From NCBI RefSeq assembly GCF_003018255.1, contig NZ_CP027440.1: a stretch of DNA of 64,000 nucleotides; one strand, given 5' to 3'. Shown one piece after another: positions 18,057-44,521 of the stretch (position 1 is the first letter of the stretch; every line of letters begins with the position of its first letter). Source of the DNA: Escherichia coli (GTDB lineage Bacteria; Pseudomonadota; Gammaproteobacteria; Enterobacterales; Enterobacteriaceae). The position numbers and the translations under genes were made by a program. The notes under the pieces were generated by a model, which did no database searches, was not told the DNA's origin, and saw only the letters and a program-made list of their open reading frames with translations.

Positions 18057-18992
18057 TTATTTCACTTCAACCACATTCAGCCGTAACTCATCCAACTGAT
18101 TTTCATCTTCTTCAGGCTGCCAACCCGCCGGTTGTAGAGGGATCTCTTCGCGATCAAACGCCAGATCACCCCCGTTAACCACTTCAGAACCGTGGGTAAT
18201 ACCTTTGAAATCGAACAGGTTGGTATCGCACAGATGCGACGGCACCACATTCTGCATCGCGCTGAACATCGTCTCGATACGCCCTGGATAACGTTTATCC
18301 CAGTCACGCAACATGTCAGCAATCACCTGACGTTGCAGGTTAGGCTGTGAACCGCACAGGTTGCACGGAATAATCGGGAACGCTTTTGCATCGGCAAAGC
18401 GCTGAATATCTTTCTCGCGGCAGTAGGCCAGCGGGCGAATCACGATATGTTTGCCATCATCGCTCATCAGTTTCGGAGGCATACCTTTCATCTTGCCGCC
18501 GTAGAACATATTTAAGAACAACGTTTGCAGGATATCGTCACGATGGTGACCCAGCGCGATCTTCGTCGCTCCCAGTTCCGTTGCGGTACGATAAAGGATA
18601 CCGCGACGAAGACGAGAACACAGTGAGCAAGTGGTTTTGCCCTCCGGAATCTTCTCTTTCACGATACCGTAAGTGTTCTCTTCCACAATCTTGTACTCAA
18701 CGCCCAGCTTTTCAAGATACTCGGGCAGAACGTGTTCCGGAAAGCCCGGTTGCTTTTGATCGAGGTTAACAGCCACCAGCGAAAAATTGATTGGCGCGCT
18801 TTGCTGCAAATTGCGCAGAATTTCCAGCATGGTATAGCTATCTTTACCCCCGGAGAGGCAAACCATGATGCGATCGCCTTCTTCAATCATATTGAAGTCA
18901 GCAATGGCTTCGCCCACGTTACGACGCAGGCGTTTTTGTAATTTGTTCAGGTTGTATATTTCTTTCTTCGTATTCTTTTGATTTTCTTGCAT
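18057..18992 (-). CDS. ttcA: tRNA 2-thiocytidine(32) synthetase TtcA
   Basis: 311 aa with SGGKDS PP-loop motif and CxxC pairs; its 5' end overlaps the prophage attL. Confidence 0.9.
18943..18957. other. attL core of the Rac-like prophage (TTGTTCAGGTTGTAT), inside the ttcA 5' coding region
   Basis: The same 15-mer recurs at 32764-32778 with diverged but related flanks. Confidence 0.55.
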
Positions 18993-19043
18993 TATTTCAG
19001 TTCTCTGGTACTAAATGGGGCAAATTGGGGGCAAACTTTGCAA

Positions 19044-20279
19044 CTACGATAACCGCGCATTCAACATGGCTACCTGTTCGTCGTTCATGTCATCAATCCA
19101 CATACCGTAAATTTCATACACCATCTGCGCAGTTTCATGCCCCATCTGGCTGGCTATAAACGCCGGGTTCGCTCCTGCCGTCAACAGCCAGCAGGCAAAA
19201 GTATGCCGCGTATGGTACGGATTACGGCGGCGAATACCAGCACGTTTTACTGCTGCATTCCATCTCGCACCCAAACTGCTTACCGAGTAATAAGGTTTCT
19301 GTTTTCCGTTACACACTCTGGGCATGAAAACAAAATGCAGTTTTTGCTTTTCGGTTCTGCCGTACTCCCGATGATAAAAAGTGATTTCGCTTTTGCGATG
19401 ATGCCCGGTCAGTTTGTATTGCTCCTTCAGTGCTTCAAGAGCAGGCTGCAGTAGTGTTACCGTCCGGATCCCCGCATTTGTTTTTGGGGGACCGAACATA
19501 TCAAGTATCGTCAGGTTTCTTCTGACATTCACAACTCCCTTCTCGAAATCCACATCCTCCCACGCCAGAGCAGCCAGTTCCCCGTGACGAAGCCCGGAGT
19601 ATACGGCAAATTTCCACAAGTTCTGGCTCTGTCCTTTTTCACTTTCCATTAATGCATTGAATTCTGTTTTAGATAACGGGTCAGGCTTTATTCTGTTTCT
19701 CTGTAATTTTTTTACTCCTTCAAATGGTTTGGTTGATATAAATCCCGACTGATACGCAAAACGTAACAACGAACAGAGCAGGGCGATATAATTATCAACT
19801 GTGCGCACGGTTCTTCCTTTTTTGTTGGATCTTGGATTATCTAGGTAAAGCGTTTCTCCATGCAGCAGTTCATTCCGGTAGTTTAAGATATCGCTATAAC
19901 GAATATGCGATATCGGGGTACTCTCACAAATTATTATCCTGAGTGTTTTTAATTGTGATTTCGTTTTCTTCATTGTGTTTGTTGTTAACTCTGTTTCTTT
20001 AATTTTTGTCCAGATATCACAAAGCTCCCCGAACGTTTTTATGACCCTCGTTGTCACCATTTTTGCCCCAGTGCTGGACTGGGGAAAACGTCTTAAATAC
20101 TCAAACTCACCGGAATTGATTTCATGAACTATCAACGCTCTTAAATTCCCGGCTTTTTTAATGTTACTGTTAGTAACCTCCCAGCCTTTCAATGTTTCCC
20201 GACATCGTTTTCCTCGAAACATGAACCAGATGCGAATGTATTTACCTCGAATCTCGACACCTGTTGGTAATTTAGACAT
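19044..20279 (-). CDS. intR: Rac prophage tyrosine integrase IntR
   Basis: 411 aa with a C-terminal tyrosine-recombinase catalytic region (HxxR ... Y); immediately inside attL. Confidence 0.9.
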   Translation of the reverse strand: MSKLPTGVEIRGKYIRIWFMFRGKRCRETLKGWEVTNSNIKKAGNLRALIVHEINSGEFEYLRRFPQSSTGAKMVTTRVIKTFGELCDIWTKIKETELTTNTMKKTKSQLKTLRIIICESTPISHIRYSDILNYRNELLHGETLYLDNPRSNKKGRTVRTVDNYIALLCSLLRFAYQSGFISTKPFEGVKKLQRNRIKPDPLSKTEFNALMESEKGQSQNLWKFAVYSGLRHGELAALAWEDVDFEKGVVNVRRNLTILDMFGPPKTNAGIRTVTLLQPALEALKEQYKLTGHHRKSEITFYHREYGRTEKQKLHFVFMPRVCNGKQKPYYSVSSLGARWNAAVKRAGIRRRNPYHTRHTFACWLLTAGANPAFIASQMGHETAQMVYEIYGMWIDDMNDEQVAMLNARLS

Positions 20280-20280
20280 A

Positions 20281-20496
20281 TCATGAGTCTTTGATAAACT
20301 GATTTATCTTTGGATAGTTGTACCAGATAATTCCTCGCTTACTGTCTGGCTTCCCTAAAGGAGATACTCGTTTGAAGTGGAAGCCTTCCACCCAACAGTT
20401 CTGGCGGTATGCTTCAATTTGTCTGGCCCCCAGACCAGTGCGAAGCATCAGGCCGTATTCAACCATCCACTCTTCATTAAAGATTACTTGTGCCAT
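20281..20496 (-). CDS. xisR: excisionase-like protein XisR (YdaQ)
   Basis: Start at [11 protein letters not shown] gives 71 aa; directly upstream of intR. Confidence 0.7.
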
Positions 20497-20595
20497 CGCA
20501 TTACCTCTGGCAGGCGCCAATGTTAGACTTAAATTGACGCCCGATGTTGATTATTAATAATCAGCTATGAAGTTTTAATTTGAATACAATGCAAT

Positions 20596-20796
20596 TCACG
20601 AGGACTGAAGTTTCTCGCAATTAAAATTTATCAGTTTTACTTTCTGCTCTCTGGAAACGCCTGCTTCTTTTTTACCTGAGAGCATTTTTTCGCATTCTGA
20701 TTTAGTTAGTTTATATTTTGAATATCTTGTCCAGTTAGTAGGAGTGCCACCTTCCTTTTCAATAGTGGCGGTAATTTTATACATGAACACCTCCAT
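20596..20796 (-). CDS. rcbA: Rac prophage protein RcbA (YdaC)-like
   Basis: ORF 20596..20856; contains MYKITATIEKEGGTPTNW...; exact start is ambiguous (Met at 20796 or 20784). Confidence 0.5.
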   Translation of the reverse strand: MEVFMYKITATIEKEGGTPTNWTRYSKYKLTKSECEKMLSGKKEAGVSREQKVKLINFNCEKLQSS

Positions 20797-20971
20797 TATT
20801 ATTTCCAGTGGTTCGTTTATTCCATCTTTCGAGTGCTTCTTTTTCACTTCCACCATAACCGGTTCGGGATTCGCATCCGTTACACTTCGCTCGGTAATAT
20901 CCTGAAATGGCTTTCACCGTTACTGATGGACAACCACAAAATGGACATGGTTTAACATTGTCATATCTCAT
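20777..20971 (-). CDS. ralR: restriction alleviation protein RalR (Lar), zinc-finger small protein
   Basis: Start at MRYDNVKPCPFCGCPSV gives 64 aa with two CxxC pairs. Confidence 0.75.
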   Translation of the reverse strand: MRYDNVKPCPFCGCPSVTVKAISGYYRAKCNGCESRTGYGGSEKEALERWNKRTTGNNNGGVHV

Positions 20972-21027
20972 AATTTTTCTCATAAAAAATATTTCAAGTT
21001 GGCGGTGCATTACACCGCCAGGCTGAA

Positions 21028-21843
<816 letters not shown>

Positions 21844-21909
21844 ATTTTATAACCCAGAACGGGCGTCAGAAATGACGCCTTTTTTATTGCAGAAAAGCGA
21901 GAGGTAATT

Positions 21910-22509
21910 ATGCGTAAACTTTATGCCGCCATTTTGTCCGCAGCCATTTGTCTGGCCGTATCCGGTGCGCCTGCATGGGCGTCTGAACATCAGTCCACGC
22001 TGAGCGCGGGGTATCTTCATGCCCGGACGAACGTTCCCGGCAGTGATGATCTGAACGGGATTAACGTGAAATACCGTTATGAGTTTACGGACACACTGGG
22101 GATGGTGACGTCATTCAGCTATGCAGGAGACAAGAATCGTCAGCTGACCCGTTACAGCGATACCCGCTGGCATGAAGATTCCGTTCGTAACCGCTGGTTC
22201 AGCGTAATGGCGGGGCCGTCTGTGCGCGTGAATGAATGGTTCAGCGCGTATGCGATGGCGGGTGTGGCTTACAGCCGTGTGTCGACTTTTTCCGGGGATT
22301 ATATCCGCGTAACTGACAATAAGGGGAAAACGCACGATGTGCTGACCGGAAGTGATGACGGTCGCCACAGCAACACGTCTCTGGCGTGGGGGGCTGGCGT
22401 GCAGTTTAACCCGACCGAATCCGTGGCCATTGATATTGCTTATGAAGGCTCCGGCAGTGGTGACTGGCGCACTGACGGTTTCATCGTGGGTGTCGGTTAT
22501 AAATTCTGA
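21910..22509 (+). CDS. lom: Lom/Ail/OmpX-family outer-membrane beta-barrel protein (prophage Lom)
   Basis: 199 aa with signal peptide, alternating beta-strand pattern and C-terminal GYKF. Confidence 0.85.
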   Translation: MRKLYAAILSAAICLAVSGAPAWASEHQSTLSAGYLHARTNVPGSDDLNGINVKYRYEFTDTLGMVTSFSYAGDKNRQLTRYSDTRWHEDSVRNRWFSVMAGPSVRVNEWFSAYAMAGVAYSRVSTFSGDYIRVTDNKGKTHDVLTGSDDGRHSNTSLAWGAGVQFNPTESVAIDIAYEGSGSGDWRTDGFIVGVGYKF

Positions 22510-22573
22510 TTAGCCAGGTAACACAGTGTTATGACAGCCCGCCGGTTCAGGCGGGCTTTTTTGTGGGGTGAAT

Positions 22574-25500
22574 ATGGCAGTAAAGATTTCAGGTGTACTG
22601 AAAGACGGTGCAGGTAAACCGGTACAGAACTGTACAATCCAGCTGAAAGCAAAACGTAACAGCACCACGGTGGTGGTGAACACGGTGGCCTCAGAAAATC
22701 CGGATGAAGCCGGGCGTTACAGCATGGACGTTGAGTACGGTCAGTACAGCGTTATTCTGTTGGTGGAAGGATTCCCGCCGTCACATGCCGGGACCATCAC
22801 CGTGTATGAAGATTCCCGACCCGGTACGCTGAATGATTTTCTCGGTGCCATGACGGAGGATGATGCCCGTCCGGAGGCTCTGCGCCGTTTTGAACTGATG
22901 GTGGAAGAGGTGGCGCGTAACGCGTCCGCGGTGGCACAGAACACGGCAGCCGCGAAGAAATCAGCCAGCGATGCCAGCACATCAGCCCGTGAGGCGGCAA
23001 CCCATGCGACTGATGCTGCAGATTCAGCACGTGCAGCCAGCACGTCAGCCGGACAGGCCGCTTCGTCGGCTCAGTCAGCGTCTTCCAGCGCAGGAACGGC
23101 ATCAACAAAGGCCACTGAAGCCTCAAAAAGTGCTGCCGCTGCAGAGTCCTCAAAAAGCGCGGCGGCTACCAGTGCCGGTGCGGCGAAAACGTCAGAAACG
23201 AATGCGGCAGCGTCACAACAATCAGCAGCCACTTCTGCATCCACCGCGACCACGAAAGCGTCAGAAGCTGCCACCTCAGCCCGGGATGCGTCGGCCTCAA
23301 AAGAGGCAGCGAAATCATCAGAAACGAACGCATCATCAAGTGCCAGTAGTGCAGCTTCCTCGGCAACGGCGGCAGGAAATTCCGCGAAGGCCGCAAAAAC
23401 GTCTGAGACGAATGCAGATAACAGCGCACAGGCGGCAGCAGACTCACAAACTGCATCAGCAAACTCCGCGACAGCAGCCAAAAAATCAGAAACCAACGCG
23501 AAAAATAGCGAGGCAGCAGCAAAGAGCAGCGAAACCAACGCTAAAGCCAGCGAAACTAATGCTAAATCCAGTGAAACAAACGCGGCGAAATCTGCGGCGG
23601 ACGCACTTAATTATCGCAACCAGGCGCAAGTAATTGTTGGCGATAATATCGGTCTTGGTGAAGTTGCCATGACCTGCACTGATATCTCTGTTGAGCCATC
23701 AGGTTATATTGGATTTGTCAGGATTTACATCTCAGCGAAAGGTTATCCATCAGTAGCGTCTAGTGCCGGTGATAATCTTATTTCTGGTTATATAGTTAGA
23801 TCAGAAGTGTCAACAAAAAGATATTCCGGTCTATTTGTTGGTTCAGATACAAAATCATTGTATTCGTACATTTACAGCCAAAGTTCTGGCCCGCAATGGA
23901 TACGTCATACCCGCAGAGATGAATTAAGCCGCTTTGGTCAAAATGAATCAACAACTCGTATGTATGGTCCAACTGGTGATCGTTTCTTTGAAATCCATAC
24001 TAACGGGAGTTGGGGAGTTTATGATTCTTCTTCTGGACAATGGTCTCCGTTAGGTTTAGCCCAGGGCGGTACTGGTGGAAGAACTATCGAGCAAGCACGT
24101 GCGAACTTGCGGGTAATGTATGAGCAAAAAGCTGGCCTTGCTAATACTGACCTAAACACCCTTACCGGTGAATATTCTGGTTTCTATCAACAACCAACGA
24201 GCGCTTACGCAACAGAAGAATTAAATTACCCAATCGGTCTGGCGGGCGCTTTAATAGTGCTCCAAACGAGAGCCAACACTGCTTCTTCCTGCGTTCAGGT
24301 GTACTACCCTTATAATAATCCGGGAATTACTTATAGACGAATATATGAAGGAGGAAGCGGTACCTGGTCTGAATGGAAGAGAGATGTATCAACAGAAAGG
24401 GTTGAAGAGGGAAAAGAAACAACTTACGTATATTCTACGTATTCTTCAGGCGCACCACGCTTACAGGTTTCCAAATCTGGTTTGTGGGGTTGTCATAATG
24501 GCACTGGCTGGTTGCCATTAGCTGTTGGGCAAGGAGGTACAGGTGCGACAACAGTAGAAGATGCGCGAAACAACTTAAGTCTTGGCGAAAGTAGCGCAGT
24601 TAAATTTAAAAACCTTACTTTAACCGAAGCGCTCGACACGACATTAGGACTGCTTACAAAAACAGGACGAGACTGGAACACGCAGCATACTGATAACATT
24701 AATAAATTTATACCAATTGCAGGCAGTACAAACGGCCCGGCAGGTTCTATGGTTCTTGGCGGCATTCATGTTCAATTTAGTAAAAATTATGCTGTGCAGT
24801 TCGGAGGCCGCAATTCCGGTTTTTGGGGAAGAACAATTGAAAATGGAACGACGCAGGAATGGAAGAAATTACTAACAGTAGACGATCTCAATTCATCTAC
24901 CGATCTTGCTGTCAGGTCATTAACCACATCTAACCCGGTAAAATCTGGCGGAGGGCGAATTGATGTCCTTGGAAGCACGTCAGACTATAGCAAAATGGAT
25001 TGCTTTGTACGTGGGTTTGATAGCACCGGTAATTCTCTCGCGTGGGCGTTGGGTTCATCAGTCGGCGTAAGTAAGATGCTGTCGCTAAAAAATTTCTTTA
25101 GCGGAGCTGAGATACTGTTAAATGGTAATGACGGCGCGGTTCAACTCAAAACAGGTGCTGTTAACGGGGCTAAAGCGCAGGCGCTCACTATCAACAAGGA
25201 TGAGGTTAACTCAACTGTTGATTTAACTCTTACAAAACAAACAGGGACTGGAAATCGTTTTGTTTTACAGAACTTAGGTAATACAGAACTATCATTTGCC
25301 GCAAAAGTATGGGGATCAAGTGATCGACAAAACGTTTTTGAGGTTGGAACGTCTGCTGCGTATCTGTTTTATGCGCAAAAAACGTCAGCAGGCCAGTTGT
25401 TTGATGTAAATGGCGCTATTAATTGCACAACGCTGAATCAGTCATCAGACCGCGACCTTAAAGACGATATTCTCGTTATCAGCGACGCGACGAAAGCAAT

Positions 25501-25879
25501 CCGTAAAATGAACGGATACACCTACACGCTCAGGGAAAACGGGATGCCTTATGCTGGCGTTATTGCACAGGAAGTAATGGAGGCGATACCAGAAGCTGTG
25601 GGATCGTTTACTCATTACGGTGAAGAGTTGCAGGGACCAACGGTTGACGGCAATGAATTACGTGAAGAAACACGTTATCTGAATGTTGACTACGCCGCCG
25701 TGACGGGGTTACTTGTTCAGGTCGCCCGTGAAACAGATGGTCGCGTTACCGCGCTGGAAGAGGAAAACATAACGCTACGTAAAAATCTGGCAACAGCAGG
25801 CACCCGGATCAGCACTCTGGAAAATCAGGTAAGCGAACTGGTTGCACTTGTCGGGCAGTTAACAGGAAGCGAACATTGA
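22574..25879 (+). CDS. stf: side tail fibre protein (lambda Stf-like N-terminus, Ala/Ser-rich repeat shaft, C-terminal endosialidase-type intramolecular chaperone / peptidase S74-like domain)
   Basis: Start MAVKISGVLKDGAGKPVQNC resembles the lambda Stf N-terminus; long AAxxSxTxA repeat region; C-terminal SDRDLKDD ... coiled-coil tail typical of self-cleaving fibre chaperone domains. Confidence 0.8.
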   Translation: MAVKISGVLKDGAGKPVQNCTIQLKAKRNSTTVVVNTVASENPDEAGRYSMDVEYGQYSVILLVEGFPPSHAGTITVYEDSRPGTLNDFLGAMTEDDARPEALRRFELMVEEVARNASAVAQNTAAAKKSASDASTSAREAATHATDAADSARAASTSAGQAASSAQSASSSAGTASTKATEASKSAAAAESSKSAAATSAGAAKTSETNAAASQQSAATSASTATTKASEAATSARDASASKEAAKSSETNASSSASSAASSATAAGNSAKAAKTSETNADNSAQAAADSQTASANSATAAKKSETNAKNSEAAAKSSETNAKASETNAKSSETNAAKSAADALNYRNQAQVIVGDNIGLGEVAMTCTDISVEPSGYIGFVRIYISAKGYPSVASSAGDNLISGYIVRSEVSTKRYSGLFVGSDTKSLYSYIYSQSSGPQWIRHTRRDELSRFGQNESTTRMYGPTGDRFFEIHTNGSWGVYDSSSGQWSPLGLAQGGTGGRTIEQARANLRVMYEQKAGLANTDLNTLTGEYSGFYQQPTSAYATEELNYPIGLAGALIVLQTRANTASSCVQVYYPYNNPGITYRRIYEGGSGTWSEWKRDVSTERVEEGKETTYVYSTYSSGAPRLQVSKSGLWGCHNGTGWLPLAVGQGGTGATTVEDARNNLSLGESSAVKFKNLTLTEALDTTLGLLTKTGRDWNTQHTDNINKFIPIAGSTNGPAGSMVLGGIHVQFSKNYAVQFGGRNSGFWGRTIENGTTQEWKKLLTVDDLNSSTDLAVRSLTTSNPVKSGGGRIDVLGSTSDYSKMDCFVRGFDSTGNSLAWALGSSVGVSKMLSLKNFFSGAEILLNGNDGAVQLKTGAVNGAKAQALTINKDEVNSTVDLTLTKQTGTGNRFVLQNLGNTELSFAAKVWGSSDRQNVFEVGTSAAYLFYAQKTSAGQLFDVNGAINCTTLNQSSDRDLKDDILVISDATKAIRKMNGYTYTLRENGMPYAGVIAQEVMEAIPEAVGSFTHYGEELQGPTVDGNELREETRYLNVDYAAVTGLLVQVARETDGRVTALEEENITLRKNLATAGTRISTLENQVSELVALVGQLTGSEH

Positions 25880-26086
25880 TATCCTTCAAGCCCTGAAGGA
25901 GGCTGTTCCTGGTACGTTCAGACTGTTGTTGAGCTGGAAATCGCAACGGAGGAAGAAACTTCGTTGCTGGAAGTCTGGAAAAAGTATCGGGTGTTGCTGA
26001 ACCGTGTTGATACATCAACTGCACCTGATGTTGATTGGCCAGCAGCACCGAAGTGTAATTCATTAGAACTCATCACCTGTGAATAA
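25880..26086 (+). pseudogene. orphan 3' remnant of a tail-fibre-assembly (tfa) gene
   Basis: In frame with stf immediately after its stop, no start codon; encodes ...[29 protein letters not shown]..., a Tfa-type C-terminal motif by recollection. Confidence 0.45.
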
Positions 26087-26687
26087 TATCTGTTTTTGAG
26101 TAAGTTAGTAATAATCACTTAAATGTGTTATGAGTTTGTTGAGGCGTGATTTGCAATAGGATAGAGAGTACGATTATGGATTGAGAATAAGAAAGCGCCA
26201 TGAAAGAGTTTCATGGCGAGTACATAAACGTACAAAATATGATGAAAGTAGAGTGGCATAAGCCACTATGTTAACTTATAGCAATAGGGAAGATAAGTAA
26301 ATAATATTTCTTGAGTATAGTGTAAGTCGTTCATTGTAAAGCGTTAATGTTATCTATATTGTTTATCTTAAAATAAGGTGTATAAACCAAACTTTTGAGC
26401 TAAAAGTTTAAAGAGTATTAGTGCAAAAATAATGTTTAATAAGATAATCAATTTGCTTTGTATCTTCATTTCGAAAGATTGCTAAGTAACGTTAATTACC
26501 AAAACGATAGATCAGAATTATCTTAGAGTCAATGACTTTAGGTTTGTTTATAATGTAAATATTTTCTATTTGTTATAAGTTTTCTTAATATAGTCACCCA
26601 TGCAACTTGTTCCGTGTGGAGATTAAAGGTTAAAATTTAATGCGAAGATGGAATTATATTATATTTGTTATAATTAATTTAACCTTA

Positions 26688-26770
26688 ACATCGTTGCTGG
26701 CGGCATGGAAGAAATATCGGGTCTTGCTGATGTCGTGTTGGCACTTCCTTAGTGCCGGATATCGAGTGGC
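26688..26770 (+). pseudogene. second, frameshifted tfa-like C-terminal remnant
   Basis: Encodes ...[10 protein letters not shown] then, after a +1 shift, RVGTSLVPDIEWPAAPIG; a degenerate direct repeat of 25955-26060. Confidence 0.3.
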
Positions 26771-26987
26771 CAGCTGCACCTATAGGGTAAAAATATAGTT
26801 CTATATGGGAGCGCTATTTTTACAATATAAATGCTGAACGGAAGAATCTAACCAGTTACAAAAAACATAGTTATGTAATCCAGTTGCCTGGGCATGCGTG
26901 TGATGTTGATAGCTATTACTGTATCTTCCGTTCACTTACCTTATTGTGAACAGTTATATATAATTTGATCTGCTCTTATTCAGCCTG

Positions 26988-28190
26988 CTAGGCTGCTGTA
27001 AATCTTCGATACTTTCTTAACATAAAGATCATGATTAGAATAATTGAAAGTAAGTAAACAATCCAAATGGTGATATTTCGTTCAATTAAAAAGCTACCAA
27101 TTCCGCCGATCACTGAAGGAATCACCAGAGAAGCGGCCCCCATTAACGCAGATGTGGCACCCAGACTGGTACGTTGGCTGGACATAGTTAGGTAAGTATA
27201 AAGTGATTCGAACATACCTCCGGCAAACATCAAAACAATGAAGAATAATATAAAAACATTGACATGATGAACGAATATTATTAGCGGAGTGCACAATACG
27301 ATAAATGAAGCAATGAGCTTCAGCCATAAACTCAAAATTTGTGGTGCAGACCGCTTCTTAAGTAGTTTACCTGATAGTGCTGCTCCCAGCAGAAGGAATC
27401 CTCCAATAATTGATGAGATAACACCAAATTGCGTAGATGAGTATCCATACTTAACCATCAAAATAAATGGGGAAGCTGTGACATAACAATAAATTAGAGA
27501 GAATGAAAGTCCAAGAGAAAGGCAAGGTAGATAAAATCTTGGTTGCTTACTTATCTCTTTGTACGTAAGAAATGATGATTTTAGTGAATATGTAATCCGT
27601 TTTTTATGACTGAGTGTTTCAGGGAAGTTAAAATAGACATACGTTAATGTTACAACAGAATATCCTAATATCATTAGAAAAATTGCACGCCATCCCCATA
27701 CATCATTAATTATTCCTCCCAGCAGTGGAGAAGCAATAGGCACGACACCTTCAATAGTTATGATAATAGCGTACAGTGTAGCAGCCACTGAACCGCGTGT
27801 TACATCACGAACGGCACTAATTGCTGTAACCAGAGTTATTGATATAGAAAGCCCCTGTATGATGCGTATTGTAAGAAACGTACCCAATCCGGTCGAGAGT
27901 GTGAGGCAATATGTTGTCACACAATAAATAATAGCACCTGAAAGCATAATTCTTCGACGACCAATAGAATCAGATAATGGGCCAAAAATTAGCTGTCCAA
28001 AACCTATACAAAGGGTATAAACCATGATAGACAATTGCATGGACGGGATGTTTTGTCTAAATTCTTTTGCGATGTCAGGAATTGAAGGCAAATAAGTGTC
28101 CACACCTAGAATGCCCATAATAGTCAGCAGCGATAGGCCAATAGTAAAGAAAAGTATATTCTTTCTGTGAATAACAACTTGTGATTTCAT
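26988..28190 (-). CDS. MFS transporter (12-TMS, Bcr/CflA-like drug:H+ antiporter family), AT-rich foreign gene
   Basis: 400 aa, highly hydrophobic, with the MFS signature GPLSDSIGRRR after TM2; GC content visibly far below the flanking DNA. Confidence 0.8.
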   Translation of the reverse strand: MKSQVVIHRKNILFFTIGLSLLTIMGILGVDTYLPSIPDIAKEFRQNIPSMQLSIMVYTLCIGFGQLIFGPLSDSIGRRRIMLSGAIIYCVTTYCLTLSTGLGTFLTIRIIQGLSISITLVTAISAVRDVTRGSVAATLYAIIITIEGVVPIASPLLGGIINDVWGWRAIFLMILGYSVVTLTYVYFNFPETLSHKKRITYSLKSSFLTYKEISKQPRFYLPCLSLGLSFSLIYCYVTASPFILMVKYGYSSTQFGVISSIIGGFLLLGAALSGKLLKKRSAPQILSLWLKLIASFIVLCTPLIIFVHHVNVFILFFIVLMFAGGMFESLYTYLTMSSQRTSLGATSALMGAASLVIPSVIGGIGSFLIERNITIWIVYLLSIILIMIFMLRKYRRFTAA

Positions 28191-28952
28191 TATTTATCAC
28201 CATGAATAAATTAAAAGAATGAAAAAAACTCCATTTAAATGGAAGGAGGTGGATAATTATCGTGTAGGCAATACAACAGAGTTGAAAAGAACTGTCAAAC
28301 TTTTAACTCAAAAAAGTGAGATGTGAATCACAGACATAAAAATCATCTTTTTCAGCCCTATGGTTCAGTTAAATTTGATTGTTATCGTACGAAGGTTTGA
28401 ACGTGTGTGTGCGTATGCGGTATTTTTTCTTGCGAGTGCCGGAGTTATGAGAGCGTTGTATTAACCTTCATAATCTGACCTATTCAATTGATTCCAGTAC
28501 ACCAATGGGTATTTTGGTGTTATGGTATGTGACTCCAAATAAAATGGAGCGTGAACTGATAGTTGTGCGAACAAAAGTCGGACTAGAAACCGCTCGGGTA
28601 CAGTGGCGAATTGGAGTTGGCGACCCAAACTGACCTAGGAACAATCGTTGCAGATCGGACGATTAATTTCATCAGAAATTCCTCGCTAAAAGGTGGCTAT
28701 CACTGTGATGTTAACGTATCTAATTTGTACAAGAAATTTCTGCGGGGGAAAATGAAACCGCAGACTCGTTGTATGCAAAAACGTGCTGCGGCTAACTGGT
28801 GAACTTTCGATAGTGCGGGTATTGAATGATTTCTAGGCGTTATCGATTTTACGTATTTTTTGCATGATAGAATTCGTACCTCCTCCCAACGACCTTCCAT
28901 GGCTTTCCGGACTTCTGTAGGCCGGCGGACGATGCTGTCCTCGGATGTTGTG

Positions 28953-29810
28953 CTAATTGGGTGATAACAGATCCTGTGTATGGGAGTTTCCCTTTGTGCG
29001 TGCGTTGATGCTGGTAACGGTAAACGTCATGATGAACACGACCGCGAATAAGACGACAATCGTCGGAGCTGGTGCGCTGTCGATAAAAAAGGACAACCAG
29101 ACACCAGTCATTGACACTATTACCGATATGCCAGTCGCCAGTAGGAGCGCAATATGAAAGCGTTGTGTCAGGAGTACCGCAATGGCGCCAGGCGCTATGA
29201 GCAGAGAAATGGAGAGAATGATACCTACCGCTTTCAGCGTCGCCACAATGGTCAGAGAGACCATGCACAGCAGCCCATAATGCAGCCATCTCGTATGCAA
29301 ACCGCTTACCTGCGCCTGTTGATAATCAAAGCTGAACAGCAAAAAATCCCGCCATTTTACGCTAATAACAAGTGTAACCAGCCCGGCAATAATCATCGTC
29401 TGGATTATATCGCCGATGGTTATCCCGAGCATGTCGCCGAAAAGAATATGGTCAAGATGTACGTCTGGTTTGACTGCAATATACAAGATCAGACCTGCGG
29501 CAAACATGCCAGAAAAAACAATCCCCATCACTGTATCTTGCTTGATTCGGCTGTTGTCTTTCAGGTATCCCGTCGCCACCGCGCAGAATACTCCGGCGAC
29601 GAATGCCCCTGTAGCTAAAGGTAACCCCAGAATCCAGGCAAGCACGATGCCAGGAAAAACTGCATGACTCATCGCGTCACCCATCAGTGCCCAACCTTTC
29701 AGGACCAGAAAGACCGACAGCAGCGCACAGGGTATGGAAACTACCAGTGAAATCAGCAGTGCGTGACTCATAAAGGTGAACTGCAGTGGCTCCAGTAATA
29801 ATGCCATCAT
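28953..29810 (-). CDS. sitD: Mn/Fe ABC transporter permease SitD
   Basis: 285 aa integral membrane permease; last gene of the four-gene operon; overlaps sitC by 4 bp. Confidence 0.9.
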   Translation of the reverse strand: MMALLLEPLQFTFMSHALLISLVVSIPCALLSVFLVLKGWALMGDAMSHAVFPGIVLAWILGLPLATGAFVAGVFCAVATGYLKDNSRIKQDTVMGIVFSGMFAAGLILYIAVKPDVHLDHILFGDMLGITIGDIIQTMIIAGLVTLVISVKWRDFLLFSFDYQQAQVSGLHTRWLHYGLLCMVSLTIVATLKAVGIILSISLLIAPGAIAVLLTQRFHIALLLATGISVIVSMTGVWLSFFIDSAPAPTIVVLFAVVFIMTFTVTSINARTKGNSHTQDLLSPN

Positions 29811-30664
29811 GAGCGATCCTCCAGCGCCTTATGCGCACGCCGACGATTTGCCAAAAGCCCATGGGTGGGCGCAAAGACAAATGCTAAAAGAAACAGCAGT
29901 GTCTGCGCCACCACGATGATTCCACCTGTCGCGCCGTCCAGAAAGTAACTGACCCACGAGCCGAGGAAACTGGTTACACTGCCAATAGTTACAGCAATCA
30001 TGAGCAGGCGGGGAAAACGATCGGTTAACAACCATGCTGTTGCACCGGGAGTCACCACCAGACAGATCACCAGAAAGGCACCAACCGTTTGCAGCGCCGC
30101 AACGGTCGAAACCGACAGCAGGGTGAAGAAGAGGAGTTTTAATCTGCCCGGATGCAATCCAATAGCACGGGCGTGATTCTCGTCGAAAAAGGTCACCATA
30201 AGATCTTTCCATTTGAAAAAAAGCACGATGATCGAGAGAATGCCAATGATAGTGAGTTGCAGGATATCCGCCGGATCGATTGCCAGAATATTGCCCAGGA
30301 CGATGGTCTGAATGTTCACAGATGTCGGGTTCAATGACACCATAAACAGCCCCAGGCCAAAAAAGGATGAGAAGATCAGGCCGATGATGGCATCTTCTTT
30401 TAAGCGGGTGCGTTGGTTAAGAAACAGCATGCTGCCCGCAGCCAGTCCGCCGGAAAAGAAGGCTCCCAGAGAAAACGGAAGCCCCAGCATATATGCTCCC
30501 GCAACACCCGGGACAATAGAGTGCGACAACGCATCGCCAATCAGCGACCAGCCTTTTAGCATCAGATAGCATGACAGGAAAGCGCAGAGACCGCCGACCA
30601 TCGCCGAGACCCACATCGCATTGAGCATATATTCATAGCTGAAGGGTTCCAGTAGCACGTTCAT
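29807..30664 (-). CDS. sitC: Mn/Fe ABC transporter permease SitC
   Basis: 285 aa permease paralogous to SitD; 4-bp overlaps on both sides. Confidence 0.9.
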
Positions 30665-31488
30665 CTTTCTTCCCTCTGCACCGCTGACGGTCGATGAGCC
30701 ACAAAAGGGCGTTCATCGTCAGTAATAATGCTTTCTTCCGAGCCGTTAAGTGTGACATGGCGCAGTACGCCGCTAAAAGCCAGCTCCAGGTTCTCGGCTG
30801 TAAAAGTGGTGTCTGTCGGCCCGCTTGCCAGGACGGTGCCTTTGACCATGACCGTATAATCGCAAAATGTCGTGACGGATCCGAGATTGTGTGTTGAGAC
30901 AAGCATCGTTTTGCCTTCCGCGCGTAACTCCCTCAACAGGCTGATGATTTTGGCTTCGGTTTTCACATCAACGCCAGTAAAAGGTTCATCCAGCAGGATC
31001 ACATCACCCTGCTGTGCAATCGCTCTCGCCAGAAAGACGCGTTTCTTTTGTCCACCGGAAAGCTCGCCGATTTGTCGATGGCGAAAATTCACCATATCGA
31101 CACGTTCCAGCGCATCGGTGACAATTTGACGATCCCTCTTTTTGGCGATACGCAACATACCCATATGCCCATAGCGGCCCATCATCACCACATCTTCCAC
31201 CAGTACAGGAAATGACCAGTCAACCTCTTCTGACTGAGGGACGTAGGCAACCAGGTTTTTCTGTAACGCCTGTCGCGTGGGAATACCCAGAACAGATATC
31301 TTTCCGCTGGTCAGACGCACAAATCCCATAATCGCTTTAAACAACGTCGATTTTCCGGAACCGTTTACCCCAACCAGAGCGGCAATAGATCCACTTGGTA
31401 CTGTGAAGGATGCATCGCGCAGTGCTGTGTGCCCGTTACGCCAGGTGACAGTAACATCATTAACGACAATGCCTGCAGATTGCATCAT
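30661..31488 (-). CDS. sitB: Mn/Fe ABC transporter ATP-binding protein SitB
   Basis: 275 aa with Walker [13 protein letters not shown] signature LSGGQKKR and Walker B ILLDEP. Confidence 0.9.
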
Positions 31489-32402
31489 TATTTCTCCCTT
31501 TTCCCGGCTTTAATTCCCTGTACCAGCGTACTGGTAGTAACCTTAAGAAGGTCGATATACGTCGGTACCGGGCCGTTTTCTGTGCTCAGGGAATCGACAT
31601 AGAGCACACCGCCGTAGTGTGCGCCGGTTTCACGCGCAACCTGACGCGCTGGTTTATCGGAAATCGTACTCTCGCTAAAGACTGCCGGGATATGATTTTT
31701 CTTAACTATATCAACAACCTTACGTACCTGTTGCGGTGTTCCTTGTTGATCGGCATTAATCGGCCACAGATAAAGCTCTTTTAGCCCCAAATCGCGTGCG
31801 AGATAAGAAAAAGCCCCTTCACTGGTGACCATCCACCGCTGATTCTCAGGGAGTTCCGTAATCTGCTTACGCAGGGGGGCAAGGGTTTGGGTAATCTTGG
31901 CTTTATAAGTATCGGCATTACGTTGGTAGGTTTGTGCATTAGCGGGATCGTATTTTATCAACGCATCACGAATATTATCGACGTAAATCAGAGCATTATC
32001 TGGCGACATCCATGCATGGGGGTTAGGTTTGCCCTCATAGGGGCCTTCGGTGATCCCTACTGGCGTCACACCCGAAGAGACAATTACTTCTGGAACCCCA
32101 TTGAGATGCTGGTAAAAGCGTTGGAACCACAATTCCAGATTCATACCATTGGCGAGGATCAGTTGTGCCCCCTGCGCACGTTTAATATCGCCAGGGGTAG
32201 GCTGATACTCATGAATTTCTGCACCGGGCTTGGTTATGGATGAGACTTCTGCAGCATCTCCAGCCACGTTTTTGGCCATATCCGCGATGATGGTAAATGT
32301 TGTAATGACCTTGAATTTTTCAGTTGCACTTGCCTGAAATGCGATCGAGCAGGTGAGGGCGAGGCACCCCAAGAGCATGGTTACTTTTTTTATTGAGTGC
32401 AT
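31488..32402 (-). CDS. sitA: periplasmic Mn/Fe-binding protein SitA (cluster A-I substrate-binding protein)
   Basis: 304 aa with signal peptide; first gene of the operon; 1-bp overlap with sitB. Confidence 0.9.
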
Positions 32403-32434
32403 AATTTAGTACCTATAGTGAGCAAAATTAGAAC

Positions 32435-32456
32435 AAACATAGCAACGGCTATGTTT
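32435..32456. promoter_or_regulatory. MntR box (perfect palindrome AAACATAGC-N4-GCTATGTTT) in the sitA promoter
   Basis: Perfect 9-bp inverted repeat 33 bp upstream of the sitA start; matches the MntR operator consensus as I recall it. Confidence 0.65.
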
Positions 32457-32477
32457 TATAGCACAACCTATACAAAA

Positions 32478-32496
32478 TGAAAATGATTATCATTAA
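32478..32496. promoter_or_regulatory. Fur box in the sitA promoter
   Basis: TGAAAATGATTATCATTAAC matches the GATAATGATAATCATTATC Fur consensus at most positions. Confidence 0.6.
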
Positions 32497-32610
32497 CAAC
32501 TTTGTGGCCCAAAACAGGGATTAGGTTGTTTCCTGCTGGCGACATGGTATTGAGGAAAAAAGCAGGGCAGCTATTAGGCTTTGAAATGACTTTATGAGGA
32601 AAATTTTTGA

Positions 32611-32655
32611 TGGCAAAAATGGGGCAAAACGCTGTAGAAGGGGCAAAAAAGGGGC
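32611..32655. repeat. three direct GGGGCAAAA(A) repeats in the prophage arm next to attR
   Basis: GGGGCAAAAC ... GGGGCAAAAAA GGGGCAAAAAAA; two similar copies lie at 19019-19038 next to attL. Confidence 0.6.
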
Positions 32656-32763
32656 AAAAAAAGAGTGGATTATCGTAGCTTATTGTTGTCGCTGATAATG
32701 TTTAACATATTGAAAAATAAATAAAATACTTATGAGTCAGATAGTTGTGATTTTTGCCCTTAC

Positions 32764-40853: not shown

Positions 40854-43493
40854 ATGCTGGGTAAATATAAAGCCGTTCTCGCGCTATTATTACTGATTAT
40901 TCTTGTGCCGTTGACACTGCTGATGACGCTCGGGCTGTGGGTTCCCACGCTGGCGGGCATCTGGCTACCGCTCGGGACACGTATTGCATTAGATGAAAGC
41001 CCACGCATTACGCGTAAAGGTTTAATCATTCCCGATCTCCGTTATCTGGTGGGAGATTGTCAGCTTGCGCATATCACCAACGCCAGCCTTTCACATCCCA
41101 GCCGCTGGTTATTGAACGTCGGCACGGTAGAACTTGATTCTGCTTGTCTGGCGAAATTGCCGCAGACGGAGCAATCGCCTGCCGCTCCAAAAACCCTCGC
41201 GCAGTGGCAGGCCATGTTGCCTAACACCTGGATCAATATCGATAAACTGATTTTTTCTCCCTGGCAGGAATGGCAGGGAAAACTCTCTCTCGCATTAACC
41301 TCCGATATCCAGCAACTGCGTTATCAGGGCGAAAAAGTTAAATTTCAAGGCCAGCTGAAAGGGCAACAACTTACAGTCAGCGAACTGGATGTCGTCGCGT
41401 TTGAAAATCAGCCGCCGGTTAAACTGGTGGGGGAATTTACTATGCCGCTAGTGCCGGATGGACTTCCTGTAAGTGGTCATGCTACTGCGACGTTAAACTT
41501 GCCGCAGGAGCCTTCACTGGTGGATGCCGAGCTGGACTGGCAGGAAAATAGCGGGCAATTGATTGTGGTGGCACGGGATAACGGCGATCCGTTGCTCGAT
41601 CTGCCGTGGCAAATTACTCGCCAACAATTGACCGTAAGCGATGGTCGCTGGAGCTGGCCGTATGCAGGTTTTCCTTTGAGTGGACGACTGGGTGTCAAAG
41701 TCGACAACTGGCAGGCAGGGCTCGAGAACGCTCTGGTCAGCGGACGACTGAGTGTGCTGACCCAGGGGCAAGCGGGTAAGGGCAACGCGGTGCTTAATTT
41801 TGGCCCAGGAAAATTAAGTATGGATAACAGCCAGCTGCCTTTGCAGCTGACCGGTGAAGCGAAACAGGCGGACCTCATTTTATATGCCCGTTTACCTGCG
41901 CAGCTAAGCGGAAGTCTGACTGACCCAACGCTGGCCTTTGAGCCAGGCGCGTTATTACGTTCGAAGGGAAGAGTCATCGATTCGCTGGACATCGATGAAA
42001 TCCGCTGGCCTTTAGCGGGTGTAAAAGTCACCCAACGTGGTGTTGACGGACATTTGCAGGCCATTTTGCAGGCGCATGAAAATGAACTGGGCGATTTCGT
42101 GCTGCATATGGATGGACTGGCGAATGATTTTCTCCCTGACGCTGGCCGCTGGCAGTGGCGCTACTGGGGAAAAGGCAGTTTTACACCGATGAATGCCACC
42201 TGGGATGTCGCAGGAAAGGGTGAGTGGCATGACAGCACGATTACGCTGACCGATCTCTCCACCGGTTTCGACCAGTTACAATACGGTACGATGACGGTAG
42301 AAAAGCCGCGATTAATTCTCGACAAGCCCGTCGTCTGGGTACGTGACGCACAGCATCCCTCCTTTAGCGGCGCGCTGTCACTGGACGCCGGGCAAACGCT
42401 GTTCACTGGCGGCAGTGTGTTACCGCCATCAACCTTAAAATTTAGTGTCGATGGGCGCGATCCGACGTATTTCCTCTTTAAAGGCGATTTGCATGCTGGT
42501 GAGATTGGCCCGGTTCGGGTAAATGGTCGCTGGGACGGTATTCGTCTGCGCGGTAACGCCTGGTGGCCTAAACAATCACTGACTGTATTCCAGCCGCTGG
42601 TGCCACCCGACTGGAAGATGAACTTACGCGATGGCGAACTGTATGCTCAGGTTGCATTTTCAGCTGCGCCTGAACAAGGATTCCGCGCGGGAGGGCACGG
42701 TGTGTTGAAAGGCGGTAGTGCCTGGATGCCAGATAATCAGGTTAACGGTGTCGATTTTGTCCTGCCTTTCCGTTTTGCCGATGGAGCCTGGCATCTGGGG
42801 ACTCGCGGCCCCGTTACGTTGCGAATTGCCGAAGTGATTAATCTGGTGACAGCGAAAAATATTACGGCTGATTTGCAAGGGCGTTATCCGTGGAGTGAAG
42901 ACGAACCATTGCTGTTGACTGATGTTAGCGTCGATGTGTTAGGCGGTAACGTGCTGATGAAACAATTACGCATGCCGCAACATGACTCGGCGCTGTTGCG
43001 GCTGAATAATCTCTCATCCAGCGAACTGGTTAGCGCCGTCAATCCGAAACAATTCGCCATGTCCGGGGCATTTAGTGGTGCATTGCCGTTATGGCTAAAC
43101 AACGAAAAATGGATAGTGAAAGACGGCTGGCTGGCAAATAGCGGGCCAATGACCTTGCGGCTGGATAAAGACACCGCAGATGCGGTGGTGAAAGACAATA
43201 TGACCGCGGGTTCAGCAATTAACTGGTTGCGCTATATGGAAATTAGCCGTTCATCGACAAAAATTAATTTAGATAATCTCGGTTTATTAACCATGCAGGC
43301 CAATATTACAGGTACCAGTCGCGTTGATGGTAAAAGCGGTACGGTAAATCTTAATTACCATCATGAAGAGAATATTTTTACGCTGTGGCGCAGTTTACGC
43401 TTTGGCGATAATCTCCAGGCATGGCTGGAGCAGAACGCGCATCTACCGGGAAATGACTGTCCGCAAGGAAAAGAGTGTGAGGATAAACAATGA
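40854..43493 (+). CDS. ydbH: AsmA-like large envelope protein YdbH
   Basis: 879 aa with an N-terminal TM anchor; forms an operon with ynbE and ydbL. Confidence 0.9.
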   Translation: MLGKYKAVLALLLLIILVPLTLLMTLGLWVPTLAGIWLPLGTRIALDESPRITRKGLIIPDLRYLVGDCQLAHITNASLSHPSRWLLNVGTVELDSACLAKLPQTEQSPAAPKTLAQWQAMLPNTWINIDKLIFSPWQEWQGKLSLALTSDIQQLRYQGEKVKFQGQLKGQQLTVSELDVVAFENQPPVKLVGEFTMPLVPDGLPVSGHATATLNLPQEPSLVDAELDWQENSGQLIVVARDNGDPLLDLPWQITRQQLTVSDGRWSWPYAGFPLSGRLGVKVDNWQAGLENALVSGRLSVLTQGQAGKGNAVLNFGPGKLSMDNSQLPLQLTGEAKQADLILYARLPAQLSGSLTDPTLAFEPGALLRSKGRVIDSLDIDEIRWPLAGVKVTQRGVDGHLQAILQAHENELGDFVLHMDGLANDFLPDAGRWQWRYWGKGSFTPMNATWDVAGKGEWHDSTITLTDLSTGFDQLQYGTMTVEKPRLILDKPVVWVRDAQHPSFSGALSLDAGQTLFTGGSVLPPSTLKFSVDGRDPTYFLFKGDLHAGEIGPVRVNGRWDGIRLRGNAWWPKQSLTVFQPLVPPDWKMNLRDGELYAQVAFSAAPEQGFRAGGHGVLKGGSAWMPDNQVNGVDFVLPFRFADGAWHLGTRGPVTLRIAEVINLVTAKNITADLQGRYPWSEDEPLLLTDVSVDVLGGNVLMKQLRMPQHDSALLRLNNLSSSELVSAVNPKQFAMSGAFSGALPLWLNNEKWIVKDGWLANSGPMTLRLDKDTADAVVKDNMTAGSAINWLRYMEISRSSTKINLDNLGLLTMQANITGTSRVDGKSGTVNLNYHHEENIFTLWRSLRFGDNLQAWLEQNAHLPGNDCPQGKECEDKQ

Positions 43494-43675
43494 AAATTTT
43501 ACTGGCTGCGTTGACGTCATCTTTTATGCTGGTTGGCTGTACGCCTCGCATTGAAGTCGCTGCACCTAAGGAACCGATCACTATCAATATGAACGTTAAA
43601 ATTGAGCATGAGATCATCATCAAGGCAGACAAAGATGTCGAAGAGCTGCTTGAGACCCGTAGCGATCTTTTTTGA
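43490..43675 (+). CDS. ynbE: small lipoprotein YnbE
   Basis: 61 aa with lipobox LVGC; start overlaps the ydbH stop. Confidence 0.8.
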   Translation: MKILLAALTSSFMLVGCTPRIEVAAPKEPITINMNVKIEHEIIIKADKDVEELLETRSDLF

Positions 43676-43682
43676 GGTGATG

Positions 43683-44009
43683 ATGAAAAGAACATTACTT
43701 CTTTGTGCATTTCTTGTTGGCTTGGTAAGCAGCAATGTAATGGCATTGACTCTGGATGAAGCCAGAACTCAGGGGCGGGTAGGCGAAACATTTTATGGTT
43801 ATCTGGTTGCGCTGAAAACAGATGCTGAAACTGAGAAATTAGTAACCGACATCAATGCCGAACGTAAAGCGAGCTATCAACAACTGGCAAAGCAGAATAA
43901 TGTGTCGGTGGATGATATCGCGAAACTCGCCGGGCAAAAGCTTGTAGAACGGGCCAAACCCGGGGAATATGTACAAGGGATAAACGGTAAATGGGTGCGA
44001 AAATTTTAA
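43683..44009 (+). CDS. ydbL: periplasmic protein YdbL (DUF1318)
   Basis: Start at MKRTLLLCAFLVG with GAGGTG ribosome-binding site; 108 aa. Confidence 0.8.
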   Translation: MKRTLLLCAFLVGLVSSNVMALTLDEARTQGRVGETFYGYLVALKTDAETEKLVTDINAERKASYQQLAKQNNVSVDDIAKLAGQKLVERAKPGEYVQGINGKWVRKF

Positions 44010-44180
44010 TAGCAAAACCGCAATATCGGGATAACGCTACAGGAGAAGACGATTAATCTATTTTCCGGAAACAACGTGAATATTCAAAAATTCCTGTCAA
44101 ATTGCCTTTCGCCCTGAAAAATGCATAGTCAAATATCTGTTTTAACTAATTCGCGTTGCTGTACATGCAACGCGAATTAG

Positions 44181-44372
44181 TTAGCGGAATTTACGTCGAT
44201 ACTCGCCTGGCGTCATCCCAAAGCGTTGCTTAAATACCGTTGAAAAATGACTCTGGTCGGAAAATCCCCAATGAAAGCCAATGCCTGCCAGTTTTTCATC
44301 ATCTGCGGCATGGCGAATCGCATCTGCACAAAAATCGAGACGACGGTTACGGATATATTGCGCGACTACCAA
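44181..44372 (-). pseudogene. feaR: feaR 3' fragment (AraC-type HTH C-terminus only)
   Basis: 63-aa ORF encoding an AraC-family HTH tail (GFHWGFSDQSHFSTVFKQRFGMTPGEYRRKFR); feaB, tynA and paaZ-paaX are absent from the window. Confidence 0.55.
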
Positions 44373-44521
44373 ACCTTTATCGGCAAACTTTATCAGCGCG
44401 TAGCGCCTGCTGCTTTAGCGTTCGTTAGTGAAAAAGGTGAAACCTCGGTCGGTGAATTGCCTGCGCCGGGAAGCCTGTATTTTCAACGTTTTGGCGGCTT
44501 GAATATTGAACAGGAGGCGTT

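Follow-up and report, generated by a model that had tools for sequence, protein, structure and literature searches.

The segment between ydbL and paaY in the DNA analysed here is very probably the scar of a single deletion of ~17.75 kb that removed the phenylethylamine/phenylacetate (fea/paa) catabolic island, with paaY most likely a leftover passenger. That DNA, which we call the window, is a stretch of 64,000 nucleotides of Escherichia coli sequence (contig NZ_CP027440.1; Table 1). An earlier reading made from the letters alone (the sequence-only reading) had taken a feaR fragment beside an orphan paaY for the footprint of a missing fea/paa cluster. This proved correct: BLAST comparison with K-12 locates both breakpoints, with 17.75 kb missing between them.

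The process that we propose would have begun with one deletion event that removed the island while the core genes ydbH-ynbE-ydbL and pdxI stayed put. The event would have been an illegitimate recombination, independent of RecA, that used a short imperfect homology (TATC...AACATT), rather than the work of an insertion sequence. It would have happened once, and the resulting allele would since have been inherited and moved between genetic backgrounds by homologous recombination. Carriers would be unable to grow on phenylacetate or 2-phenylethylamine.

Table 1. Features at and around the deletion junction, in window positions.
Feature	Position	Strand	Description
ydbH	40854-43493	+	
ynbE	43490-43675	+	
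ydbL	43683-44009	+	intact, last gene of ydbH-ynbE-ydbL; 97% to K-12 YdbL by tblastn, 108 aa; PGAP
hairpin, 17-bp stem	44143-44183	.	ydbL/feaR convergent intergenic region, overlaps feaR stop codon
feaR 3' remnant	44181-44387	-	last part of AraC-type DNA-binding domain; pseudogene
chimeric ORF, 97 codons	44247-44540	+	47 codons antisense to feaR plus 50 paaX codons, in frame
paaX 3' remnant	44388-44540	+	pseudogene; PGAP 'PaaX, incomplete, missing N-terminus'
deletion junction	44388-44389	.	...TATCGGCAAAC / TTTATCAGCG...
paaY	44522-45112	+	196 aa, predicted hexapeptide-repeat/gamma-carbonic-anhydrase-like thioesterase gene, full length
terminator-like hairpin and T-run	45111-45140	+	directly after paaY stop; terminator scan
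pdxI (ydbC)	45343-46203	+	intact right flank; 98.6% by tblastn, 286 aa; PGAP

Breakpoints and missing DNA

Breakpoints were placed by BLAST and base-level alignment against two references with an intact locus, K-12 MG1655 (L003) and the paa-positive strain ECO8855 (L008). Alignment to K-12 feaR and paaX, to which the sequence-only reading had looked for the breakpoint, puts the left end at K-12 position 1446585, inside feaR, and the right end at ~1464338, inside paaX. The window corresponds to K-12 up to 1446585 as far as its position 44388, and to K-12 from 1464338 onward starting at 44389. The bases absent relative to K-12 therefore run from 1446586 to ~1464337, or ~17.75 kb, and contain the 5' two-thirds of feaR, feaB, tynA, paaZ, paaABCDEFGHIJK and the first ~266 codons of paaX. 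The 3' ends of feaR and paaX abut head-on at 44387/44388, with zero spacer and no foreign DNA, although these same ends lie 17.75 kb apart in both K-12 and ECO8855. Moreover, the flanks, ydbH-ynbE-ydbL on the left and pdxI on the right, have kept their synteny with K-12.

Each partner in the junction is the 3' part of a gene that other strains have whole, and the ancestor of this allele thus had the cluster. This bears on the reverse scenario, in which the window would preserve an ancestral empty site and K-12-type strains would have acquired the island horizontally, as an insert between ydbL and pdxI. In the literature the paa locus figures as a heterogeneous region that lies between ydbH/ynbE/ydbL and ynbC/ynbD and is 'inserted between core genes' (PMC4951805), and the O157:H7 layout is free of any remnants. 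No insertion could have produced the feaR tail of 68 codons and the paaX tail of 50 that the window allele retains; in paa-positive strains the corresponding genes are complete, and the remnants match their 3' ends with 96-100% protein identity. On this evidence the empty-site scenario is refuted for the window allele, and we give it practically no weight.

Junction sequence and mechanism of loss

The feaR parental site reads ...TATCGGCAAAC/ATTCGG... in both intact references (ending GGCAAAC/ATTCGG, the slash marking the breakpoint), and the paaX parental site reads ...TATCAACA/TTTATCAG... in both. The window joins the two as ...GGCAAAC/TTTATCAG.... The motif AACATT is present at both parental sites, which suggests a short-homology illegitimate recombination. 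At the junction itself this motif has become AAC-TT, one A short. Specifically, a crossover within AACATT predicts ...AAACATTTATC..., whereas the window reads ...AAACTTTATC..., with one A fewer, and because the junction thereby falls one A short of a clean microhomology product, the mechanism is suggested rather than more firmly indicated. The separate type B scar (below) lies exactly on a short sequence that its two parental sites have in common, which is in keeping with such a mechanism.

Mobile elements offer another route to such a loss. In E. coli B the cluster disappeared in a separate, IS3-associated event (PMC3032704), and IS200C, IS2 and IS1414 are found near the locus in some relatives of the window strain. 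For an IS-mediated adjacent deletion at the window locus we found no sign: neither the window nor the eight aligned loci with the same junction (type A, below) have an insertion sequence, an IS end or a target-site duplication at or near the junction. The window junction is also free of repeats and filler DNA, and the two gene stumps directly abut. We therefore regard IS-mediated deletion as very improbable for this allele and favour illegitimate recombination at the short homology.

Gene remnants at the junction

The feaR remnant comprises 207 nt, that is 68 codons plus the stop, with homology extending as far as 44387. Its 68 amino acids are 100% identical to K-12 FeaR residues 234-301 (tblastn) and match positions 236-303 of 303 in the NF007243 profile (E = 4.5e-36); the score of 124.8 bits, from the last 68 residues only, is below the profile's cut-off of 199. 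A complete FeaR has ~301 aa, with an N-terminal domain and both helix-turn-helix units, and the remnant has no start codon or promoter region. The sequence-only reading had rightly seen a FeaR C-terminus here and had counted 63 codons, which falls short of the actual 68. The 63-aa ORF on which it relied (44181-44372, minus strand) does match the FeaR C-terminus and is a mechanical ORF opened at an internal TTG. PGAP labels the stump 'helix-turn-helix domain-containing protein, incomplete, missing N-terminus', both in strain 2014C-3338 and in seven other junction-bearing strains.

Between this stump and paaY the same reading had placed a gap of 150 bp. Rather than a spacer, this stretch is the tail of paaX, which overlaps paaY by 19 nt, exactly the overlap of K-12. 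The paaX remnant (153 nt) holds the last 50 codons and the stop, corresponding to PaaX residues ~267-316, and is 96% identical to K-12 PaaX 266-316 (tblastn). It covers only positions 243-278 of 279 in TIGR02277, at 24.2 bits against a cut-off of 264.6. PaaX is the GntR-type repressor of the paa operon, and its N-terminal winged-helix DNA-binding domain is missing from the remnant, which is thus far from full length.

Deletion has also fused the two stumps into an open reading frame of 97 codons, for which a paaX 3' remnant had been proposed; an NCBIfam profile and tblastn both confirm that it contains one. The frame stays open in all eight type-A loci examined and has 8 amino acid replacements in L009 and 7 in L010, the divergent loci. 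Family matches are restricted to its paaX part, and PGAP does not call the ORF. We considered and rejected it as a new gene, given that the replacements are unconstrained in frame and that the families match the paaX tail only. The chimeric ORF is an accidental by-product of the deletion, with no evidence of coding.

Search for a second cluster

A tblastn search of the 64-kb window with all K-12 Fea and Paa proteins found no fea/paa genes besides the feaR, paaX and paaY pieces described here. The feaB- and paaZ-like hits at 58412-59830 were rejected as a displaced cluster, as they represent the paralogous aldehyde dehydrogenase gene aldA (33% and 26% identity, respectively).

For whole chromosomes we used a chimeric probe composed of the junction region and seven reverse-complemented 301-bp pieces, from feaB, tynA, paaZ, paaA, paaE, paaH and paaK. 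In the 60 closest junction-bearing chromosomes and in two divergent ones, the probe had one matching place each and no match elsewhere; a chimeric probe search in three junction-bearing chromosomes likewise found one place only in each. With these relatives as a proxy, we infer that the cluster is missing elsewhere in the window's own genome too. The sequence-only reading had staked its case on there being no fea/paa cluster elsewhere, and this holds for the window itself and for the 60 closest junction carriers that stand in for the source genome.

Frequency and history of the allele

We counted the junction in 5,426 complete E. coli genomes with a junction-specific 100-bp probe. The exact junction (type A) is present in 258 of them, always as a single chromosomal copy, and its recurrence base for base in so many independent complete genomes shows that it is not due to chance. 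The carriers come from humans, poultry, pigs, dogs and wild birds, and all carriers that we inspected have both stumps annotated by PGAP as partial pseudogenes. More broadly, paaA-K are present in 3,171 of the 5,426 genomes, leaving 42% without them. The window scar is thus an ordinary deletion allele, already annotated in RefSeq, at a locus well known to vary. It predicts that the window strain, and ~5% of sequenced E. coli, would not use phenylacetate or 2-phenylethylamine, and simple lineage markers could be made from the junction sequences. Apart from correct annotation, the scar matters little, and understanding of the pathway and of E. coli genome dynamics is unchanged.

The junction, including the missing A, is identical in all eight type-A loci aligned, and the 341-bp remnant block of the window has 0-1 differences from those of L004, L005, L011 and L012. 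From the identical imperfect junction of all carriers and the remnant haplotype common to the lineages nearest the window, we infer that the junction is probably of single origin. Repeated formation of the same junction, with the AACATT sites acting as a deletion hotspot, would also account for its presence in divergent carriers, which include a derivative of EPEC O127:H6 E2348/69, avian pathogenic O78:H4 strains, IMT16316 and ECONIH1. Furthermore, a second type of deletion (type B, below) has its left end in feaR only 45 nt from the window breakpoint. The details of the junction argue against recurrence: every carrier examined has the identical imperfect form, and loss of that one A is unlikely to recur. 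In addition, all eight loci share variants at 44259 and 44280 that differ from K-12 and ECO8855, and six of the eight share a variant at 44352, where L009 and L010 have the K-12 base. A hotspot is accordingly improbable, if less so than an IS-mediated deletion, and a single origin followed by inheritance and recombination is the reading that we retain.

The remnants of the E2348/69 lineage differ from those of the window at 13 of 341 positions, from which it follows that the allele is old. The stumps, which are slow-evolving in general, differ from K-12 by 1.2%. We also observed that a core at 44175-44552 has zero differences between the window and strains WP5-S18-ESBL-08 and isolate 624, with flanks (43500-44174 and 44553-45250) that differ by 2-5%. 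The identical core might be read as strong proof of recent spread; that argument is weakened by the 1.2% divergence of the stumps from K-12 and by the 13 differences in the E2348/69 lineage.

Outside the remnant block the divergence is mosaic. Comparison of the window with L004 or L011 gives a paaY dS of 0.11 and flanks that differ by 2-5%, and the 3' half of the window paaY resembles the allele of the E2348/69 lineage. Such a pattern points to recombination in the flanks, on either side of a junction that arose once, and the locus would then show a deletion allele sitting within a mosaic of recombined flanks. About a dozen variants in the window paaY are absent from all other sampled alleles. 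These variants suggest that a divergent donor supplied the window paaY, through a crossover close to the start of the gene.

The orphan paaY gene

Judged by sequence, the predicted product of the gene is a genuine PaaY of full length. It shares 95.4% identity with the K-12 protein and passes the TIGR02287 equivalog model (364.7 bits against a cut-off of 319.6), with residues 3-195 spanning profile positions 1-192 of 192. Its next best profile match is CaiE, and PGAP names the gene paaY in 60/60 of the closest relatives. In relation to the PaaY/CaiE/YrdA proteins, the window PaaY aligns end to end with the gamma-carbonic-anhydrase-like structures 8gpm, 1v3w and 3tio. It retains His65, His82 and His87, which we take to be the metal ligands, as in gamma-class carbonic anhydrases. 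It also carries the changes P11Q and V12F; position 11 is a proline in 8gpm, the closest solved homolog, and in the other E. coli alleles compared.

A functional PaaY would be expected to act as a thioesterase on 2-hydroxycyclohepta-1,4,6-triene-1-carboxyl-CoA and to modulate PaaX-dependent induction. Unlike a PaaY of the paa cluster, the window copy has lost both its gene neighbourhood and its own promoter. Neither the window nor its close relatives contain paaA-K, paaZ or most of paaX, and the deletion took away the DNA upstream of paaX in which the paaXY (Px) promoter of the K-12 operon lies. A promoter scan found no sigma-70-like site between ydbL and paaY, and with that interval empty a promoter created by the junction itself is unsupported as a candidate. 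In the scheme that we propose, paaY would have survived only because the right breakpoint fell 134 nt upstream of its start, and its expression would be possible only by read-through from ydbL.

The sequence-only reading had held that paaY without its operon may be non-functional or repurposed. The second half of that statement found no positive support, and the first fits a leftover gene, in view of the lost promoter region, the P11Q change and the decay in the E2348/69 lineage. Repurposing would require that selection keeps the orphan gene as a stand-alone acyl-CoA thioesterase or gamma-carbonic-anhydrase-like enzyme, expressed by read-through from the phospholipid-transport operon ydbH-ynbE-ydbL and translationally coupled to the chimeric ORF. 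Several observations are consistent with this. The gene is full-length in 7/8 type-A loci, where the seven intact copies represent five protein alleles, and in 60/60 close relatives; it scores above the PaaY equivalog cut-off and retains the three histidines. It still overlaps the upstream ORF by the native 19 nt, and the hairpin upstream has no U-tract on the plus strand, so that read-through is possible. Pairwise dN/dS values are 0.13-0.30, as continued purifying selection would also give. Finally, proteins like PaaY are often encoded away from paa clusters (PMC13186573).

Conversely, a promoter-like site upstream is absent, and P11Q alters a position at which 8gpm has proline. The dN/dS values mainly reflect divergence that is older than the deletion or that recombination brought in; as they mix pre-deletion history with imported alleles, they cannot decide on the function of paaY. 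The paaY of the E2348/69 lineage (L009 2685-3305) has lost its start codon (ATG to AAG) and its stop codon (TAA to TCA) and has accumulated radical substitutions, with 10 unique amino acid changes. In the 564 genomes with the type B scar, all that is left of paaY is a truncated 3' fragment, and O157:H7 has none of it. At the L009 locus, PGAP calls a 204-aa 'paaY' that starts from an ATT codon.

Selection for a stand-alone PaaY in the window is therefore unlikely, and we rate slightly lower still the wider proposal that several lineages maintain the orphan gene as a free-standing CoA-thioesterase or gamma-carbonic-anhydrase-like enzyme through read-through and translational coupling. Were it true, the locus would offer a small case of a regulatory or detoxifying accessory gene gaining a new role after deletion of its operon. 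As it stands, the orphan paaY is most likely a dispensable, slowly decaying passenger that has not been repurposed.

Neighbouring genes

The hairpin between ydbL and feaR is native to the locus and was not made by the deletion. The region 44120-44210 folds at -31.7 kcal/mol (z = -4.8), and the same hairpin is present at this locus in strain LS4 (L002 3244-3284). It has no T-run after it on the plus strand and was not called by the terminator scan. A match between this hairpin and an Rfam miRNA model (search of 43400-45600 with a permissive E-value) was dismissed as chance, the model being eukaryotic and the score 28.6 bits against a gathering threshold of 90.

A second junction relative to K-12 lies at 45113-45127, between the paaY stop and pdxI, and is spanned by the terminator-like hairpin. 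From 45127 onward, after the paaY stop, the window corresponds to K-12 from 1474005 onward, and the K-12 gene ynbG and the ydbA autotransporter pseudogene (8.9 kb, IS2 and IS30 included) are absent. Many paa-positive strains also have paaY adjacent to pdxI, which marks the absence of ynbG and ydbA as a separate polymorphism. At this same end of the locus, an IS200/IS605-family tnpA adjoins paaY in many carriers of the window haplotype; in strain LCP30S3_I5 (L010 3497-3955) an IS200/IS605 tnpA sits between paaY and ydbD, with no pdxI annotated there.

Further to the right, ydbD (DUF2773 bactofilin, 46267-47614) is a pseudogene: ~35 nt have been inserted near 46617-46652, ~0.98 kb is deleted internally (K-12 YdbD residues 287-614), and the frame changes. 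In the closest relative, PGAP marks the gene 'frameshifted'. The gene ynbD (51074-52366) has an internal stop codon and is a pseudogene by PGAP in 2014C-3338 too. This brings the inactivated genes within 8 kb to four, namely the feaR, paaX and ydbD remnants and ynbD.

On the left side of the window, a 13.8-kb segment adjoining ttcA (18986-32763), which the closest complete genome lacks, looks like a degraded prophage. It contains an integrase-sized ORF (19044-20279), remnants of tail J, Lom and tail-fibre genes (~21202-25879), a Bcr/CflA MFS transporter gene (26988-28190) and the iron/manganese transporter genes sitDCBA (28953-32402).

Comparison with other E. coli loci

The K-12 locus (b1384-b1400) has the same flanks as the window, with ydbH-ynbE-ydbL on the left and pdxI-ydbD-ynbABCD on the right. 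In both, the 3' end of feaR, the 3' end of paaX and paaY have the same orientation, at ~96% DNA identity; the window lacks the 17.75 kb that in K-12 lie between feaR codon 233 and paaX codon 267. The window junction is found base for base in strain 2014C-3338 (NZ_CP027452.1), where PGAP annotates two partial pseudogenes and paaY (C6W71_RS23275, RS23270 and RS23265). This strain matches the window with 100% identity in the 3 kb that surround the junction and with 99.2-99.9% identity in three aligned blocks that total ~50 kb, and it lacks the window's 13.8-kb insertion. The junction of the EPEC E2348/69 derivative (NZ_LT903847.1) is also identical to that of the window.

The O157:H7 layout, as in strain N8B7-2 (L007 5558-12009), resembles the window in lacking a fea/paa cluster in the interval from ydbL to pdxI. 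Unlike the window, it retains no trace of feaR, paaX or paaY; its ydbL is ~76% identical to that of the window, and an autotransporter, split into two CDSs, lies upstream of pdxI. The gene tynA is known to be variably present and is absent from O157:H7 (PMC4640556).

The closest parallel to the window scar is type B, found in 564 genomes, ST131 included, and exemplified by strain LS4 (L002 3282-3860). It reflects the same kind of event, with ~18.1 kb lost and a feaR 3' stump beside ydbL. In type B, 252 nt of feaR are joined to nucleotide 251 of paaY, such that paaX is gone and paaY is truncated to nucleotides 251-591; this fragment is ~89% identical to the window copy. The type B junction is clean and sits on a perfect 7-bp sequence, GCTATCC, common to feaR and paaY, whereas the window junction is imperfect. 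As type B keeps more of feaR than the window allele does, it cannot derive from that allele and represents an independent event. More generally, with at least three scar types in E. coli, the locus illustrates the repeated, independent loss of one catabolic island.
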